IMG/VR virus record: IMGVR_UViG_2693429676_000011
DNA length: 10,097 bases
DNA from: a virus
Taxonomy: Duplodnaviria > Heunggongvirae > Uroviricota > Caudoviricetes
Reading direction: 5' to 3' (one strand)
Part shown: in pieces, positions 2,900 to 9,665 of the stretch
Layout: each line of letters begins with the position of its first letter
Numbering within the stretch: position 1 is the first letter of the stretch
Program-made: the position numbers and the translations under genes
The notes under the pieces: generated by a model
What the model was told of the DNA's origin: nothing
What the model saw: the letters and a program-made list of their open reading frames with translations, nothing else
Database searches by the model: none

Positions 2900-2908
2900 G
2901 CCCACAAG

Positions 2909-2928
2909 AAAACCCCTCCGGAGAGGGG
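2909..2928 (-). terminator. Minus-strand intrinsic terminator ending repeat module U1
   Basis: Stem cccctc / gagggg with loop cgga (2913..2928); on the minus strand the hairpin is followed by UUUUCUUGU. Confidence 0.45.
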
Positions 2929-3176
2929 CTAAAGCCGCGTATCTGTATCATCATGCACATGGTGCCGGGTGCCTCCCGGTGAGTTCAGCCCGGTGCCACT
3001 AAACCCGCGTCATTCTCGTTTTGATAATCAGAGATTATACCGTCACCAGTCGCCCCTCCGCTCAGGGGGATTCACCATGCGAAATTTTTTTAACAAATGC
3101 CCAGTCTGACAGGCAACTGTCAACTTACTGAATTGTGAGCAACATAGCATTTAACGGGGAACCTGTTTTCTGCAGT

Positions 3177-3203: not shown

Positions 3204-3394
3204 TGGAAGGATAGCGGTCATGTGATGCCGGTTTCCCGGTAACTCAGCACCGGTATCTGAGTCAACGTTTTCTCTACTGGGTCATTTCCGATACGCCCTG
3301 CCTGCTGACAGGCTTTCATCACATCTGAAAATATAGCACCCTGACTGATACTGTAGTACCTAAGGTTCCAGAAACTGTGATGTATCCGGCACAG

Positions 3395-3416
3395 AAAAGC
3401 CCCTCCGGAGAGGGCT
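3395..3416 (-). terminator. Minus-strand intrinsic terminator ending repeat module U2
   Basis: Stem cccctc / gaggg(c) with loop cgga; on the minus strand followed by UUUUCUGUG. Confidence 0.45.
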
Positions 3417-3612
3417 GGAGAGTGGCGCTATGTGCCATTGCATGATGCCGGGTGCCTCCCGGTGAATTCAGTACCAGCACCTGAATCCGCGATTATCCCA
3501 TATACCTACTCGCTGATTGCCCCTCCGCACAGGGGGATTCACCATGCCAGTTTCTTTTAACAAACTCCCCGCAAAACAGACAACTGTCAACCGTCTGAAT
3601 TGTGAGACATTT

Positions 3613-3652: not shown

Positions 3653-3729
3653 TGGCGCGTTGTACTGGATTCGAACCAGTGACCGATTGCTTAGAAGGCA
3701 ATTGCTCTGTCCGGCTGAGCTAACAACGC
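3653..3729 (-). tRNA. tRNA-Arg, anticodon UCU (reads AGA)
   Basis: Manual cloverleaf on the reverse complement: GCGTTGT TA GCTC AGCCGGACA GAGC A ATTGC CTTCTAA GCAAT CGGTC ACTGG TTCGAAT CCAGT ACAACGC G CCA. Perfect 7-bp acceptor stem, 5-bp anticodon and T stems, TTCGAAT T-loop, encoded CCA; 77 nt. Confidence 0.9.
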
Positions 3730-3742
3730 ATGATGCAGATAA

Positions 3743-3819
3743 TGGACCGCCATCGGGGACTTGAACCCCGCGCAGCCAGCTTCGAAGGCTGGCGCTCTTT
3801 CCTGATGAGCTAATGGCGG
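3743..3819 (-). tRNA. tRNA-Arg, anticodon UCG (reads CGA), atypical C1-G72 and D-loop
   Basis: Reverse complement folds as CCGCCAT TA GCTC ATCAGGAAA GAGC G CCAGC CTTCGAA GCTGG CTGCG CGGGG TTCAAGT CCCCG ATGGCGG T CCA. All stems are perfect and CCA is encoded; 77 nt. First base C and the unusual D-loop lower confidence slightly. Confidence 0.8.
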
Positions 3820-3826
3820 TATGTGA

Positions 3827-3902
3827 TGGTGGCCCTTGCTGGATTTGAACCAGCGACCTGGCGATTATGAGTCGCTCGCTCTCACCACTGAGCTAAAGGG
3901 CC
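3827..3902 (-). tRNA. tRNA with CAU anticodon, ileX/ileZ-like (Ile2 lysidine type or Met)
   Basis: Reverse complement GGCCCTT TA GCTC AGTGGTGA GAGC G AGCGA CTCATAA TCGCC AGGTC GCTGG TTCAAAT CCAGC AAGGGCC A CCA; 76 nt. Near-identical in architecture to my recollection of E. coli ileX. Lambdoid Stx phages carry an ileZ-argN-argO trio at this position. Confidence 0.85.
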
Positions 3903-3942: not shown

Positions 3943-5001
3943 TCATCCGTTCTGGCTGACTAAATCCTGTACTTCCCGAACCGTCTGCTCAAAACGTTCA
4001 GTCTCCAGCTCAACGCCAATTGCACGACGCCCGAGCGCCAGTGCCGCTTTCACTGTCGAACCCAACCCCATGAAAAAATCTGCAATCAGGTCACCCGGAC
4101 GACTGCTAGCGCTGATTATCTGCTGCAGCATTTCTGCCGGTTTTTCGCACGGATGTTTCCCGGGATAGAACTGCACCGGTTTATGCGTCCACACATCGGT
4201 ATACGGCACCTGCACCGTCACGCCAAAATACCGCCGCAGATGTTTATATTCACTCAGCAGCTCCGCATACTGCCGGTTCAGTGAGGTATACGTATCCACC
4301 AGCTGGTGGTGGAGCTTTTCCAGTTCACCACGCCGATGCTTCTCTTCTGCCACCCGGGCAAACAGCGCCTGTAATTTCAGATAATCGCTTTCATTCGGCA
4401 ACTGCCACTGACCGGCACTGAACCAGTGCGACACCATGTTTTTCTTTCCTGTGGCATCTGCAATCTGTTTTGCCGTTATCCCCAGGGCAGCTCGCGCATC
4501 ACGAAAGTAAGAAATCAGCGGGGCCATCACATGCTGTTTCAGTGCACTGCCCTTCGCCGCATACCCGGCATCTTTCGGACGATACGGCCCCTGATAATGT
4601 TCCGCGAACAGAATGCGCTCTGTGGCGGGGAAATACGCCCGCAGGCTTTCCTTGTTGCATCCGTTCCAGCGTCCGGACGGCTTCGCCCAGATAATATGGT
4701 TCAGCACACTGAAGCGTTCACGCATCATGATTTCGATATCAGATGCCAGGCGATGACCACAGAACAGGTAAAGACTTCCGGCAGGTTTCAGCACCCGCCA
4801 GAACTGCGCCAGACACTGGTCCAGCCACTTCAGGTAATCATCGTCGCCCTTCCACTGGTTATCCCAGCCCTCAGGCTTCACTTTAAAGTACGGCGGGTCC
4901 GTGACTATCAGGTCAACAGAATTTTCGGGTAACGACCGGATAAATTCCAGGCAGTCGGCGTTGATTAACTCACAACTGGATATTTTTACAGTATTAAGCA
5001 T
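3943..5001 (-). CDS. Orphan phage DNA methyltransferase (amino-methyltransferase fold), 352 aa
   Basis: DPPY motif near the N-terminus (LIVTDPPYF) and an FxGxG SAM-binding motif near the C-terminus (FFMGLGST), with a large insert between them. No restriction endonuclease partner in the window. Matches the position of the methylase gene between Q and the tRNAs that I recall in some Stx phages. The Shine-Dalgarno is weak, so the exact start is uncertain. Confidence 0.85.
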   Translation of the reverse strand: MLNTVKISSCELINADCLEFIRSLPENSVDLIVTDPPYFKVKPEGWDNQWKGDDDYLKWLDQCLAQFWRVLKPAGSLYLFCGHRLASDIEIMMRERFSVLNHIIWAKPSGRWNGCNKESLRAYFPATERILFAEHYQGPYRPKDAGYAAKGSALKQHVMAPLISYFRDARAALGITAKQIADATGKKNMVSHWFSAGQWQLPNESDYLKLQALFARVAEEKHRRGELEKLHHQLVDTYTSLNRQYAELLSEYKHLRRYFGVTVQVPYTDVWTHKPVQFYPGKHPCEKPAEMLQQIISASSRPGDLIADFFMGLGSTVKAALALGRRAIGVELETERFEQTVREVQDLVSQNG

Positions 5002-5033
5002 GGATCATTAAGCCTGTCTCTGATAGGCTCATT

Positions 5034-5052
5034 CTGCTTTTGCGCAAAGCAG
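5034..5052. promoter_or_regulatory. Perfect 19-bp palindrome CTGCTTTTGCGCAAAGCAG about 30 bp upstream of the methylase start; candidate operator
   Basis: Perfect inverted repeat centred at 5043, lying between the upstream terminator and the methylase ATG at 5001. Confidence 0.4.
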
Positions 5053-5093
5053 TGGGCCTGAGGTTTGCTTGTGAACCCAACGCATGAGCAGAT

Positions 5094-5122
5094 GGCTGGT
5101 GGGTGCCCCTAACACCCACCAG
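5094..5122. other. Long perfect hairpin (11-bp stem, 7-nt loop) in the leader of the methylase gene
   Basis: gctggtgggtg cccctaa cacccaccagc. Not followed by a U-tract on either strand, so not a classic terminator. Confidence 0.5.
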
Positions 5123-5137
5123 CCGCCCATTTACCAC

Positions 5138-5165
5138 AAATAAAAAAGCCTTCACTGCGGAAGGC
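5138..5165 (-). terminator. Intrinsic terminator after the 65-aa ORF
   Basis: Stem gccttc / gaaggc with loop actgcg; on the minus strand followed by UUUUUUAUUU. Overlaps the stop codon of the 65-aa ORF. Confidence 0.6.
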
Positions 5166-5349
5166 GTCTGTAACAACCGAACTGATAGTCTGCCAGACCC
5201 GCCATAACCAGCTGGGTCAGTATTAACTGGCAGCGTTCGCGTGAAAGGTAAGTATTCTGCGCTATCTCCCCGACTGTCGCCGGTTCGGTAACGCTTAATT
5301 CATTAAACACCACTCTGGCGGTTTCTGTCATATCCTGCTGTTTTAGCAT
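5152..5349 (-). CDS. Small helix-turn-helix protein, 65 aa, function unknown
   Basis: AAGGA Shine-Dalgarno 6 nt upstream of the ATG at 5349. The segment TVGEIAQNTYLSRERCQLILTQLVMAGL has an HTH-like pattern. First ORF downstream of the predicted tR'. Confidence 0.55.
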   Translation of the reverse strand: MLKQQDMTETARVVFNELSVTEPATVGEIAQNTYLSRERCQLILTQLVMAGLADYQFGCYRRLPQ

Positions 5350-5465
5350 GTCTTTTCCTTTTCCGGTTAACGTGACACACCAATAACTCTTGTCGAAAAA
5401 GCCAGCAAGCTGAAAGACAGGTATTCACCGCCACCAGCGCGTTTACTGTACTGACGCGATTTCAG

Positions 5466-5492
5466 TCATAAAAAACCCGCTCGGCGGCGGGT
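5466..5492 (-). terminator. tR'-like intrinsic terminator about 65 nt downstream of the predicted pR' start
   Basis: Minus-strand RNA ACCCGC-CGCCGA-GCGGGU followed by UUUUUUAUG. Confidence 0.6.
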
Positions 5493-5528
5493 TGTAGAAA
5501 CTCTTCTAACGTCAGGCATAAAACGCCC

Positions 5529-5568
5529 ATCGTTATGACGAATTTACCACAGATTCCGGAAAAATCAA
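5529..5568 (-). promoter_or_regulatory. Late promoter pR' with a lambda-type sigma-dependent pause/qut element
   Basis: On the minus strand: -35 TTGATT (rc of 5563..5568), 16-nt spacer, -10 TAAATT (rc of 5541..5546), then CGTCAT-AACGAT-GGGCG. This parallels lambda pR' (TAAATT-TGACTC-AACGAT-GGGTT) as I recall it, and lies directly downstream of the Q gene. Confidence 0.65.
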
Positions 5569-5573
5569 CCTTG

Positions 5574-6395
5574 TTACCTAGTTACCTTTTTTAACTGCCG
5601 CTCAGCCCATGCTTCTTCAATATCAAACCGGGTCACCAGCGCATCATAAAATTTCTTAACTGTTTTTTCCCATGACGCGCGTGTTATCTGGTTTGTCACC
5701 TCGCATATAGCATTAAATGCCTCCGTTGATGGTAGTCTTTCATAGCCACGACCACCACAACGCTGGCAGTCTCTGATAACAGGCATACCACGTTTTACCG
5801 ACTCTTCACGATGAATGGCGACACCACGCCCACGGCAATCCTTACAGGCGGTGGAAACCTCACCCTTTCCGCCACACTCCGGACAGGCAACTTTTACCAC
5901 CTCCCTGACTTTTTTCCATTCTTCCCAGTAAGACGGATACACACCTTTCGTACACTTTGCCCATACCGGCGGCTTACCATCCGGATACTGGATCTTGTTT
6001 GTAAAAACCTCGCTTTCAATAAATTTTTTTCCGTGACAGCAGGGGCACTGTTTTTTGCTCGCCGCGCTACGGGCATAATCTTCAAACGCATACGAAGCCA
6101 TAATACGCATCACTGCCGGTTTTATTTCTGCCGGGAGTTTTCTTAACGCCGCCACGCGATCACACCGACTGAGTGCATATTCTGTCAGCAATTCTGTTGC
6201 CCGCTCTCTGTCATTCATACTAATGCCCATTTTCCCAAGGAACGCAGAAACCCCCATCTCAGCCCGATTCTGTGTCATGCCCTGCGCGGCCATCACATCA
6301 GTGATACTCAGCGCATCTTTCGACGTTGAGGCCGATGCATCAGTCAGGCCGGGGGATTTTGGGGAGTAGTATTTCGGTAAATCTTCCAGTTTCAT
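5574..6395 (-). CDS. Late antiterminator Q (QuuQ/Q82-like, with DnaJ-type CxxCxGxG zinc motifs), 273 aa
   Basis: Lies immediately upstream of the pR'-like promoter and downstream of rusA sequence. Cys-rich motifs CPECGGKG, CKDCRGRG, CQRCGGRG. Start ATG overlaps the TGA of a 37-codon rusA 3' remnant (ATGA). Family call is from memory plus position, not a search. Confidence 0.75.
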   Translation of the reverse strand: MKLEDLPKYYSPKSPGLTDASASTSKDALSITDVMAAQGMTQNRAEMGVSAFLGKMGISMNDRERATELLTEYALSRCDRVAALRKLPAEIKPAVMRIMASYAFEDYARSAASKKQCPCCHGKKFIESEVFTNKIQYPDGKPPVWAKCTKGVYPSYWEEWKKVREVVKVACPECGGKGEVSTACKDCRGRGVAIHREESVKRGMPVIRDCQRCGGRGYERLPSTEAFNAICEVTNQITRASWEKTVKKFYDALVTRFDIEEAWAERQLKKVTR

Positions 6396-6562
6396 TTTTT
6401 GACCTGCCCTTCAAGCATTATGGGATAAATCTTCACCCCCAGACGTCCACCAGATACTGGCTGAGCACGAACGATATTGATTTCATCAAACTGCTCATCG
6501 TCCATTAACGGCGCTTATCCGGTGGTTCTGCAATAATTTTTATTGCCAACCTTCCGGACAGG
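5890..6562 (-). repeat. Tandem duplication, copy A (Q 5' part, rusA 3' remnant, junction)
   Basis: 5890..6507 aligns with 6563..7182 at an offset of 675 bp. 53 bp at 6510..6562 match 7247..7299. The 11-bp tccggacaggc occurs at 5879..5889, 6552..6562 and 7289..7299. Confidence 0.85.
6392..6505 (-). pseudogene. Duplicated 3' remnant of rusA (37 codons, MDDEQFDEINIVRAQPVSGGRLGVKIYPIMLEGQVKK) upstream of full-length Q
   Basis: Block 6396..6507 is identical to 7071..7182, the 3' end of intact rusA. Retains an in-frame ATG and the ATGA overlap with the Q start. Confidence 0.6.
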
Positions 6563-7070
6563 CAACTTTTACCACCTCCCTGACTTTTTTCCATTCTTCC
6601 CAGTAAGACGGATACACACCTTTCGTACACTTTGCCCATACCGGCGGCTTACCATCCGGATACTGGACCTTGTTTGTAAAAACTACGCTTTCAATAAATT
6701 TTTCCCCATAGCAACAAGGGCACTGCTTTTTACTCGCTGCGCTGCGGGCATAATCCTCAAAAGCGTACGAAGCCATAATGCGCATCACTACCGGTTTTAT
6801 TTCTGCCGGAAGTTTTCTCAACGCCGCCACACGATCGCACCGACTGAGTGCATAATCTGCCAGTAATTCTGTTGCCCGCGCCCTGTCATTCATACTAATG
6901 CCCATTTTCCCAAGGAACGCAGAAACCCCCATCTCAGCCCGATTCTGTGTCATGCCCTGCGCGGCCATCACATCAGTGATACTCAGCGCATCTTTCGACG
7001 TTGAGGCCGATGCATCAGTCAGGCCGGGGGATTTTGGGGAGTAGTATTTCGGTAAATCTTCCAGTTTCAT
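6540..7070 (-). pseudogene. Truncated paralog of Q (Q'), 176 codons: the Q N-terminal region (through KVACPE) plus 3 junction codons
   Basis: Matches full Q through ...KVREVVKVACPE, then reads GWQ-stop across the duplication junction. Eight amino-acid differences from Q cluster in the middle. Start ATG overlaps the rusA TGA (ATGA). Confidence 0.7.
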
Positions 7071-7299
7071 TTTTTGACCTGCCCTTCAAGCATTATGGGA
7101 TAAATCTTCACCCCCAGACGTCCACCAGATACTGGCTGAGCACGAACGATATTGATTTCATCAAACTGCTCATCGTCCATTAGCAACCCCGCATGCGTCA
7201 GCGCATCCAGCGGCGCTTTCAGAATATTGTCCAGGTCACGGCGGCGCTTATCCGGTGGTTCTGCAATAATTTTTATTGCCAACCTTCCGGACAGGCTTA
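6563..7299 (-). repeat. Tandem duplication, copy B (Q' 5' part and 3' half of intact rusA)
   Basis: See copy A. Copy B carries about 60 bp (7183..7245) that are absent from copy A. Confidence 0.85.
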
Positions 7300-7447
7300 A
7301 TTTCAGCCGCTGCTGGCGAACAATAAGCGCCACTGCCCGGCGATAACGCTCCCCGGCTTTTGATACAAAATATGTGCTGCCACGACGACGCCAGTAAGTG
7401 TTCACCGTCGGCGGGTAAGGTAAAACAAATTCTATGCGCTCGGTCAT
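7067..7447 (-). CDS. rusA: RusA-family Holliday junction resolvase, 126 aa
   Basis: Translation MTERIEFVLPYPPTVNTYWRRRGS...DKRRRDLDNILKAPLDALTHAGLLMDDEQ resembles the RusA pattern recalled from E. coli (PWPPSNNRYY...[22 protein letters not shown]). Sits in the usual nin-region position just upstream of Q. Confidence 0.85.
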   Translation of the reverse strand: MTERIEFVLPYPPTVNTYWRRRGSTYFVSKAGERYRRAVALIVRQQRLKLSLSGRLAIKIIAEPPDKRRRDLDNILKAPLDALTHAGLLMDDEQFDEINIVRAQPVSGGRLGVKIYPIMLEGQVKK

Positions 7448-9333: not shown

Positions 9334-9489
9334 TTACTCCTCAGGTTCGTAAGCTGTGAAGACAGCGACCTCCGTCTGGCCGGTTCGAATTCGTACCTCG
9401 CAGAGGTCTTTCCTCGTTACCAGTGCCGTCACAATGACGGTTAAACAGATGACGATCAGGGCGATTAACATCGCCTTTTGCTGCTTCAT
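9334..9489 (-). CDS. hokD: Hok-family type I toxin (HokD/RelF-like), 51 aa
   Basis: Translation MKQQKAMLIALIVICLTVIVTALVTRKDLCEVRIRTGQTEVAVFTAYEPEE matches my recollection of E. coli HokD/RelF. An upstream in-frame ATG at 9546 gives the 70-aa six-frame ORF and sits where mok lies in hok/sok loci. Confidence 0.9.
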   Translation of the reverse strand: MKQQKAMLIALIVICLTVIVTALVTRKDLCEVRIRTGQTEVAVFTAYEPEE

Positions 9490-9537
9490 AGCCTGCTTCT
9501 CCTTGCCTTTCGGCACGTAAGAGGCTAACCTAGATTT

Positions 9538-9608
9538 GCCGTTCATAGATTGAGCCTCAGATTAATGTTAAGCGTCTTGCCGGACGCGTAATGTTAACTG
9601 GGGCTTTT
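9538..9608 (+). ncRNA. Candidate Sok-like antisense RNA of the hok locus
   Basis: Plus-strand promoter-like elements: -35 TTGCCT (9503..9508), 17-nt spacer, -10 TAACCT (9526..9531). They parallel the R1 sok promoter as I recall it (TTGCGC, 17 nt, TATCCT). The predicted transcript is antisense to the mok start region and ends in a U-rich stretch (cuuuucucuaucugccuuuu). Ends are approximate. Confidence 0.4.
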
Positions 9609-9665
9609 CTCTATCTGCCTTTTGGTGTTCATGCCTGAGACAGATAGCCTCAAGCACCCGCTGCA

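Follow-up and report, generated by a model that had tools for sequence, protein, structure and literature searches.

A very probable Qlambda-type late-gene regulatory cassette with a short predicted leader, directly downstream of a long-arm Q gene in a lambdoid prophage

The DNA analysed here is a stretch of 10,097 nt from a viral sequence record (Caudoviricetes; IMGVR_UViG_2693429676_000011), and this whole stretch is referred to below as the window. Its minus strand carries the gene for a Q antiterminator and, past the Q stop codon, a compact series of promoter-, pause- and terminator-like elements. The features that matter for the following argument are listed in order from Q.

5574..6395, minus strand: Q antiterminator gene, 273 aa (PF03589; PDB 7UBM)
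5576-5574, minus strand: Q stop codon TAA, read directly from the sequence
5563..5568, minus strand: putative pR' -35 hexamer TTGATT, 4/6 matches to TTGACA, 5 nt past the Q stop codon
5547..5562, minus strand: 16-nt spacer TTTCCGGAATCTGTGG, candidate Q-binding element (QBE)
5541..5546, minus strand: putative pR' -10 hexamer TAAATT, the same hexamer as in lambda and P22
5535..5540, minus strand: 6-nt linker CGTCAT from the -10 hexamer to the pause element, fixed in length and variable in sequence
5526..5534, minus strand: predicted sigma70-dependent pause element AACGAT (5534-5529) plus discriminator-like GGG, from identity to lambda
5517..5519, minus strand: predicted promoter-proximal pause at about +16 to +18 (A16 U17 G18), from the lambda pause and conservation of ATG
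5470..5534, minus strand: predicted leader RNA of about 61-65 nt, counterpart of the lambda 6S RNA and the P22 late leader
5470..5493, minus strand: intrinsic terminator tR', a 7-bp hairpin plus T6, from a terminator scan
5152..5349, minus strand: 65-aa ORF, the first gene past tR', with a weak TrmB-like match
5165-5148: second intrinsic terminator, after the 65-aa ORF, from the terminator scan
3943-5001: methylase
3653-3902: three tRNAs
824-2677: SASA esterase
458-751: holin

An earlier, sequence-only reading of this DNA had listed a set of motifs on the minus strand and interpreted them as a lambda-type pR' promoter with an AACGAT pause element. Direct reading of the sequence confirms every element of that list, and the arrangement TAAATT, six nucleotides and AACGATGGG is identical to that of lambda and P22, with AACGATGGG placed at exactly the lambda and P22 spacing of 6 nt past the -10 hexamer. 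The spacer ends in TGG, which provides an extended -10 element of the TGn type, and the -35 hexamer TTGATT is unchanged among close relatives in the locus comparison. The combination TTGATT-N13-TGN-TAAATT occurs once in the window, against 0.05 occurrences expected. As judged from the sequence, a sigma70 promoter lies directly downstream of Q, and its transcript would start at the first A of AACGAT (5534), by homology with lambda and P22. A generic promoter scan of positions 4900-6500 calls no promoter; the site is missed because it scores 8/12 against a threshold of 9/12 and the extended -10 element is not counted. The P22 late promoter (TTGACT-17-TAAATT) passes the identical scan right at 9/12, and the missed call is not counted against the pR' site.

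This silence of the generic scan, together with the fact that lone TAAATT and AACGAT hexamers are common, might suggest that the likeness to lambda pR' is fortuitous and that it merely sits beside an ordinary terminator at the end of the Q gene. However, the composite motif TAAATT-N6-AACGATGGG is present once in the window, with 0 mismatches, whereas 0.01 occurrences per window are expected by chance (shuffles, with up to 2 mismatches allowed), and the same spacing recurs in many genera downstream of Q homologues with 39-97% identity. These homologues come from 16 genome loci in eight enterobacterial genera (Escherichia, Mangrovibacter, Atlantibacter, Scandinavium, Phytobacter, Kosakonia, Buttiauxella and Entomohabitans), and the order -35, about 17 nt, -10, 6 nt, AACGATGGG, leader and terminator is found in 15/16 of them, the exception being locus L007. 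Chance resemblance is thereby a vanishingly improbable explanation.

The lambda pause element provides the framework for reading the first transcribed positions. In lambda, AACGAT covers +1..+6, a discriminator-like GGG comes next, and the pause is at +16 (PMC4005639). With the predicted numbering of the window, AACGAT is +1..+6 and GGG is +7..+9 (GGGCG at 5528-5524), and an ATG at +16..+18 is kept in many relatives. The linker between the -10 hexamer and the pause element is located where lambda has its -35-like site (TTGACT), whose role is to serve sigma region 4 (PMC9388147). This lambda hexamer is not conserved in the window, which reads TCGTCA at the equivalent place and agrees with TTGACA at 4/6 positions.

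A hairpin plus U6 about 65 nt past the predicted start, another element of the sequence-only reading, is likewise found by the terminator scan. Its stem is formed by AACCCGC (5493-5487) and GCGGGTT (5480-5474), with a 6-nt loop CGCCGA, and the T6 run lies at 5475-5470. Numbered from the first A of AACGAT as +1, following the P22 annotation, the hairpin extends over +42..+61 and the last T of the run is at +65. Among relatives the stem is constant and the loop variable, and the homologous hairpin of SfV carries a terminator annotation in its record. For the 69-nt leader a fold with three hairpins and -21.4 kcal/mol is obtained (z = -2.0 relative to shuffles); the predicted leader comprises a 5' hairpin, an A/U-rich single-stranded stretch and the terminator with its U tail. 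The proximity of this terminator had been regarded as notable in comparison with lambda tR', a view that the relatives do not bear out. A wider survey covered 87 related loci, which comprise 40 distinct variants; AACGAT and the end of the T run are 54-69 nt apart in them, and the leader is also short in P22, phi80 and SfV. Because this short distance holds in 40/40 variants, the short leader is the family norm, and lambda, with its terminator at +194, is the outlier.

Gene order past tR' is that of a late operon. Many Stx and other lambdoid phages have the 65-aa ORF as well, with the annotation hypothetical protein or TrmB family protein. A coding function of the leader itself, based on a 22-codon ORF starting from the ATG at +4..+6, was considered and rejected because the corresponding ATG meets a stop after 2 codons in lambda and after 6 in P22. 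It should also be noted that the sequence from position 5493 downstream, comprising the terminator hairpin and the 65-aa ORF, is shared by phages with other upstream modules, for example a 126-aa Q in Stx2_EH2201 and, in phiP27, an annotated GIY-YIG nuclease gene in place of a Q gene. Because the downstream sequence is shared despite these other modules, a mosaic joint lies just 5' of tR'.

The Q protein has a single significant family in Pfam, PF03589 (E=1.6e-53; 179 bits, cut-off 26.7), and the same search gives no match to PF06323 or PF06530 at E<=0.01. These three families correspond to Qlambda (PF03589), Q21 (PF06530) and Q82 (PF06323) (PMC9388147). Among solved structures the best match is lambda Q (PDB 7UBM, E=3.5e-41): residues 1-113 of the window Q align to lambda Q 1-113, and residues 182-273 to lambda Q 116-207. 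On the evidence of these alignments, Q is a Qlambda-family protein, which runs counter to its earlier description as QuuQ/Q82-like rather than lambda-like. The label QuuQ-like does not separate it from lambda either, as QuuQ-type proteins align along the whole of lambda Q and are, by this alignment, long members of the lambda family and not of the Q82 family. DnaJ-type zinc motifs, which had been put forward as a distinguishing mark, do not serve as one. The DnaJ_CXXCXGXG family (PF00684) reaches 30.1 bits (E=5.9e-7) on Q, under its gathering cut-off of 32.7, and CxxCxGxG motifs cannot distinguish Q from lambda Q because two such motifs, CRDCHGTG and CGRCKGVG, are present in lambda Q too.

These results also bear on the idea of a cross-family hybrid, in which a Q82/QuuQ-like Q with a DnaJ-type zinc finger would be joined to a lambda-type pause element. 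The window Q is indeed longer than lambda Q (273 vs 207 aa), it has four CxxC motifs, and its weak match to DnaJ_CXXCXGXG would lead one to think along these lines. However, only the Qlambda family matches Q, lambda Q aligns with it end to end apart from one insertion, the DnaJ match stays under the cut-off and represents a motif type that lambda Q has too, and the QuuQ-type proteins themselves align with lambda Q throughout. Such a hybrid is therefore extremely improbable. What had been taken for a notable combination of Q and pause element is the expected one, because Q belongs to the Qlambda family.

Since the alignment covers all else, the difference between the window Q and lambda Q comes down to one insertion of 68 aa (aa 114-181). 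It holds CPCC...CPEC, a second CxxC...CxxC module. The arm of lambda Q is a zinc ribbon (residues 114-152), and the N-terminal segment of lambda Q forms a nozzle at the RNA exit (PMC9388147). The insertion is located at the base of this lambda-type arm, at the site where the lambda Q zinc ribbon contacts the beta' zinc-binding domain; because it falls at this contact, the details of loading may differ from those in lambda. The nozzle segment, on the other hand, is well represented in the window Q, with 23/44 residues identical to lambda Q. Residues M1, E4, K8, K13, S14, D19, T24, L29, T32, D33, M35, A36, A37 and G39 are invariant in 15 family proteins, and G39, L202 and T206 are invariant in both family alignments (A1 and A2).

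The window cassette exhibits considerable similarities to the lambda system, but there are also differences. Lambda shares with it the Q family, the -10 hexamer TAAATT, the length of the 6-nt linker, AACGATGGG, the position of the promoter directly 3' of Q and an intrinsic terminator ahead of the late genes. The lambda arrangement reads TTGACT-17-TAAATT-TGACTC-AACGATGGG, as does that of P22. Unlike lambda, whose spacer is 17 nt, the window has a 16-nt spacer with an extended -10 TG, and the spacer sequences are unrelated (TTTCCGGAATCTGTGG in the window, TATTGAATAAAATTGGG in lambda). The window terminator ends at about +65, whereas that of lambda at +194 yields the 6S RNA, and lambda Q, at 207 aa, is without the insertion that carries the second zinc-binding module.

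P22, with its gene 23, P late, qut and t late, has the same short-leader layout as the window. Its record marks the promoter and the qut site, starts the RNA at the first A of AACGAT and gives t late as +31..+59. P22 gp23 shares 97% identity with lambda Q and, like it, is without the insertion, and the P22 QBE is lambda-like; the P22 terminator hairpin has 12 bp and -18.6 kcal/mol, compared with 7 bp and -10.6 kcal/mol for the tR' hairpin of the window alone.

A counterpart with regard to protein architecture is the subgroup of QuuQ, SfV Q and phi80 Q (Qin ydfT, SfV Q and phi80 gp17), which are 240-273 aa long, contain the extra CxxC...CxxC module and are about 41-47% identical to the window Q. 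This subgroup has the same layout of -10, six nucleotides and AACGATGGG, in phi80 as the variant TAACGCTGGG, and its terminators end at about +54..+75, with that of phi80 near +75. The phi80 record annotates pR', a Q-binding site and a terminator. Two features set the window apart from this subgroup or from parts of it: an additional stretch of about 23 aa within the insertion, common to Entomohabitans, Klebsiella and phi80 proteins, and a spacer of the class TTTCC(G/C)GAAT rather than the TTTTCAAAAAA class of the QuuQ/SfV/phi80 subgroup. By its differences from lambda, the window cassette is a distinct specificity class within the Qlambda family and not a different kind of system.

The spacer deserves separate consideration as the candidate element to which Q binds. 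Its class, TTTCC(G/C)GAATCTGTG, is common to mEp237, HK225 and the Klebsiella phage ST974-OXA48phi18.2, whose Q proteins are 56-61% identical to the window Q overall and have a similar HTH region, so that the spacer is kept across Q proteins of 56-100% identity; the spacer of Erwinia phage 59 is related (TTTCCCGAAACTG). SfV/Qin-type proteins have a different HTH and the spacer TTTTCAAAAAATATGG, and Klebsiella phage 5 LV-2017 combines a lambda-like HTH (QPTWSR) with a lambda-like spacer, TTGAATAAAA. Spacers are thus alike where the HTH is alike, as in Klebsiella phage 5 LV-2017 and lambda. The phi80 record places its annotated Q-binding site, TCGCGGA, at the equivalent position in the spacer. 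At a finer level, the HTH allele NQITRASWEK always occurs with a CCGG spacer and the allele (S/T)LDTWKK always with a CCCG spacer (84/84 loci). This pairing of alleles fits co-evolution of Q and its candidate site. It could also be simple linkage, because the HTH and the spacer are only about 100 bp apart.

Conservation within the window's own clade was followed in 80 viral-contig copies with Q proteins 93-100% identical to that of the window. Near-invariant in this clade are the two hexamers, AACGATGGGC and the CCCGC/GCGGG stem, with AACGAT reading AATGAT in a few copies. The linker between the -10 hexamer and the pause element is the most variable segment of the cassette (CGTCAT, TGCCCT, TGCTCT, CATCAT and others), and its length is nearly always kept. 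The middle of the leader differs between subgroups. This pattern of variation looks like the result of purifying selection on the motifs and fits a functional element. The 161-nt element is present in 2461/5426 complete E. coli genomes (about 45%), and the K-12 prophage Qin (ydfT/quuQ) has a matching layout, with a terminator that has a T4 run only; its start is predicted at position 1642422 of NC_000913.3, minus strand. Isolated phages carry the cassette as well, namely mEp460_ev081 and vB_EcoS-640R1, and in phage Stx2_EH1910 it lies upstream of a methylase, tRNAs and stx2A.

A truncated Q allele is found at 6540-7070, after rusA and ahead of the intact Q. Its first 523 nt align to Q without gaps and include a diverged middle block, and after them come about 150 nt with an apparent rusA 3' end at their close. 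A search for this junction in E. coli genomes returned only joined pieces of ordinary rusA-Q loci, and in a genome whose promoter segment is 100% identical only one Q is present. Because of the truncated copy upstream of Q, the prophage may be cryptic. One could go further and regard the whole cassette as an inactive relic, in which a cryptic prophage has simply inherited the motifs while the promoter, the pause or Q itself is dead; many E. coli prophages that bear the element are indeed defective, such as K-12 Qin with its shortened T run. However, Q in the window is full length and 93-100% identical to its 80 viral-contig counterparts, the variation among copies is of the kind expected from selection on functional motifs, and the cassette occurs in two isolated phages and ahead of stx2 in Stx2_EH1910. 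A relic is therefore unlikely, since Q is intact, the motifs are conserved and isolated phages have the cassette.

Overall, it is very likely that this region is the late-gene regulatory cassette of a Qlambda-type lambdoid prophage. The points that count against this interpretation are the -35 hexamer with only 4/6 matches, the silence of the generic scan, the lack of conservation of the lambda -35-like site, the location of the 68-aa insertion at the beta' contact, the possible linkage behind the pairing of HTH allele and spacer, and the truncated Q copy upstream. Following the models developed for lambda (PMC9388147; PMC4005639), we infer the start site, the pause, the binding of Q to the spacer and the read-through in the following way. 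A constitutive sigma70 promoter, pR', would begin 5 nt past the Q stop codon and give rise to RNA from position 5534. Sigma70 region 2 would then rebind AACGAT and GGG in the non-template strand, and the scrunched RNA polymerase would be held near +16/+17. Without Q, the polymerase would escape from this pause and end at the hairpin and U6 (+42..+65), freeing a leader RNA of about 65 nt. With Q, the HTH body and the zinc-ribbon arm of the protein would bind the spacer between the -35 and -10 hexamers, and Q would load onto the paused complex with its conserved N-terminal segment as a nozzle on the RNA-exit channel. The Q-modified polymerase would pass both tR' and the second terminator (5165-5148), and read-through would then reach the methylase, tRNA, esterase and lysis genes.

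The leader RNA might have further roles in addition to this switch. pR' is constitutive in lambda-type phages, and lysogens of lambda, 21, phi80, 82 and P22 build up short RNAs from it; two RNAs of this kind, StxS and IsrK, have regulatory functions (PMC7547250; PMC4825925). Like the leader of the window, StxS and IsrK are short RNAs from a promoter just past a Q gene, with a Q-sensitive terminator (PMC7547250; PMC4825925), and IsrK and the window leader are each followed by a small ORF (PMC4825925). There are differences, however, as StxS is 258 nt long and processed to 74 nt, compared with about 65 nt for the window leader, and IsrK is encoded downstream of AntQ in Gifsy-1, whose Q is annotated as Q82-like. 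By analogy, the terminated transcript of about 65 nt could serve as a trans-acting regulatory sRNA in lysogens, which would add to the main interpretation rather than replace it. Its predicted architecture, described above, is in keeping with such a role, as is the presence of the element in so many complete E. coli genomes. However, no Rfam family reaches threshold, and the leader middle differs between subgroups; we consider a role in trans possible, but on the unlikely side. The Rfam search of positions 5440-5600, run with gathering as well as E-value thresholds, yielded nothing but matches below threshold that owe their score to the terminator, including isrK (RF01394; 16.2 vs 50 bits) and Trp_leader (21.8 vs 41 bits). 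Homology to IsrK was rejected, as isrK stays under threshold; IsrK is a positional analogue in a Q82-type cassette.

A small pairing at the 5' end of the leader may be mentioned as a separate observation. Leader nucleotides 1-4 can pair with a CGUU at +19..+27 in 10/11 Qlambda-family lineages, lambda and P22 included, compared with 7-28% of shuffles, and a count of the named pairs of this 5' hairpin gives 83% of cells paired versus 31-47% in slid registers; in the window leader the CGUU is at +24..+27. No pair in this count is changed on both sides, since the pause element leaves the 5' strand no freedom to vary, and the hairpin is accordingly treated as a possibility only. RNAalifold on 20 leaders found no common structure, since MAFFT aligned leaders of different loop lengths without gaps. 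The first 4-5 nt of the leader would be an RNA copy of the pause element, and the hairpin could be a so far undescribed working component of these cassettes, with a role in RNA stability or in Q loading. Separately, the long-arm Q could load by a variant route, because its second zinc module is located at the beta' zinc-binding domain and there is no conserved -35-like site. Taken together, the proposals that the leader is more than a by-product, through its 5' hairpin and also as a trans-acting RNA, and that the long-arm Q loads in a variant way are doubtful.

This cassette is a hitherto uncharacterised example of a well-known late switch; a literature search on quuQ and QuuQ-type cassettes found nothing relevant. 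Its analysis allows correct annotation of the late switch in a very common E. coli prophage module. The type of Q and the qut layout help to predict the control of toxin and lysis genes, the cassette being placed ahead of stx2 in at least one Stx2a phage. The natural pairs of Q and spacer alleles form a set that can be used to dissect QBE recognition. Finally, the 194-nt 6S RNA of lambda does not typify its own family, where leaders are usually 54-69 nt long.

Sequence comparison places the terminator of the window at a mosaic joint, and a further terminator-like structure lies downstream of it:
5300-5493, minus strand: mosaic joint region
5148-5165, minus strand: second hairpin resembling an intrinsic terminator, GCCTTC-CGCAGT-GAAGGC followed by a T run

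The stretch running downstream from 5493, where the terminator stem begins, takes in the 65-aa ORF, the first gene after the terminator; it is common to many Stx2 and other lambdoid phages, in which the upstream module differs from that of the window. Examples sharing the terminator and the ORF are Stx2_EH2201, whose Q is 126 aa long, and phiP27. The second hairpin overlaps the 3' end of the ORF, and Q-modified polymerase would also have to pass through it.

The same cassette follows ydfT (quuQ) in the Qin prophage of E. coli K-12:
Predicted +1 at 1642422 of NC_000913.3, minus strand: Qin cassette, TTGCAT-17-TAAAAT-TTTTTC-AACGATGGGC plus terminator

Because the T run of the Qin terminator is only 4 long, termination at this cassette may be weaker.

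The window carries a second, truncated copy of Q between rusA and the intact gene:
7067-7447: rusA, the other flank of the truncated copy
6540-7070, minus strand: truncated second Q gene, a 176-aa ORF
6396-6548, minus strand: joint region after the truncated copy

Over its first 523 nt, this copy aligns with the intact Q without gaps, but with a diverged block in the middle, and therefore descends from another Q allele. Approximately 150 nt of different sequence follow, the end of which resembles the 3' end of rusA. A genome whose promoter segment is identical to that of the window has a single Q.

Several RNA genes flank this region:
9484-9659, minus strand: Rfam sok antitoxin RNA (112 bits), a hok/sok-type locus
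3653-3902, minus strand: three tRNA genes, downstream of the methylase
2900-3109 and 3387-3576, minus strand: a pair of STnc100 RNAs (Rfam; 161 and 124 bits)

Downstream of the sok locus comes the DUF968-rusA-Q block; in a related genome, the position corresponding to the locus carries an annotated hokD. The tRNA genes follow the methylase, an order also seen in Stx phages, and have the anticodons CAT, TCG (Arg), and TCT (Arg); the first is called Met in the window, whereas it is annotated as Ile in a related genome. Both STnc100 copies are flanked by the tRNA cluster on one side and the SASA esterase gene on the other, a place occupied in Stx phages by the stx genes.

The predicted pR' leader RNA could itself fold at its 5' end:
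5508-5534, minus strand: potential 5'-terminal leader hairpin, nt +1 to +27

AACG (+1 to +4) could pair with CGUU (+24 to +27), and GGGCGU with AUGCCU. In 10 of the 11 Qlambda-family lineages, including lambda and P22, an equivalent hairpin could form, with a loop of variable length. Two-sided covariation is impossible for this hairpin because its 5' strand is the pause element.

Two further features lie within the Q gene:
5853-6056, minus strand: 68-aa insertion relative to lambda Q, residues 114-181
5631-5702: HTH allele region, residues about 232-255, whose variants associate with those of the promoter spacer at 5547-5562

At the base of the zinc-ribbon arm, where the lambda protein touches the beta' zinc-binding domain, the insertion adds a second CxxC...CxxC module; all QuuQ/SfV/phi80-type Q proteins have shorter versions of this insertion. 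Across 84 loci, the HTH allele is perfectly associated with the spacer variant, NQITRASWEK occurring with TTTCCGGAAT and (S/T)LDTWKK with TTTCCCGAAT. This association may reflect either co-evolution of Q with its candidate binding site or linkage.
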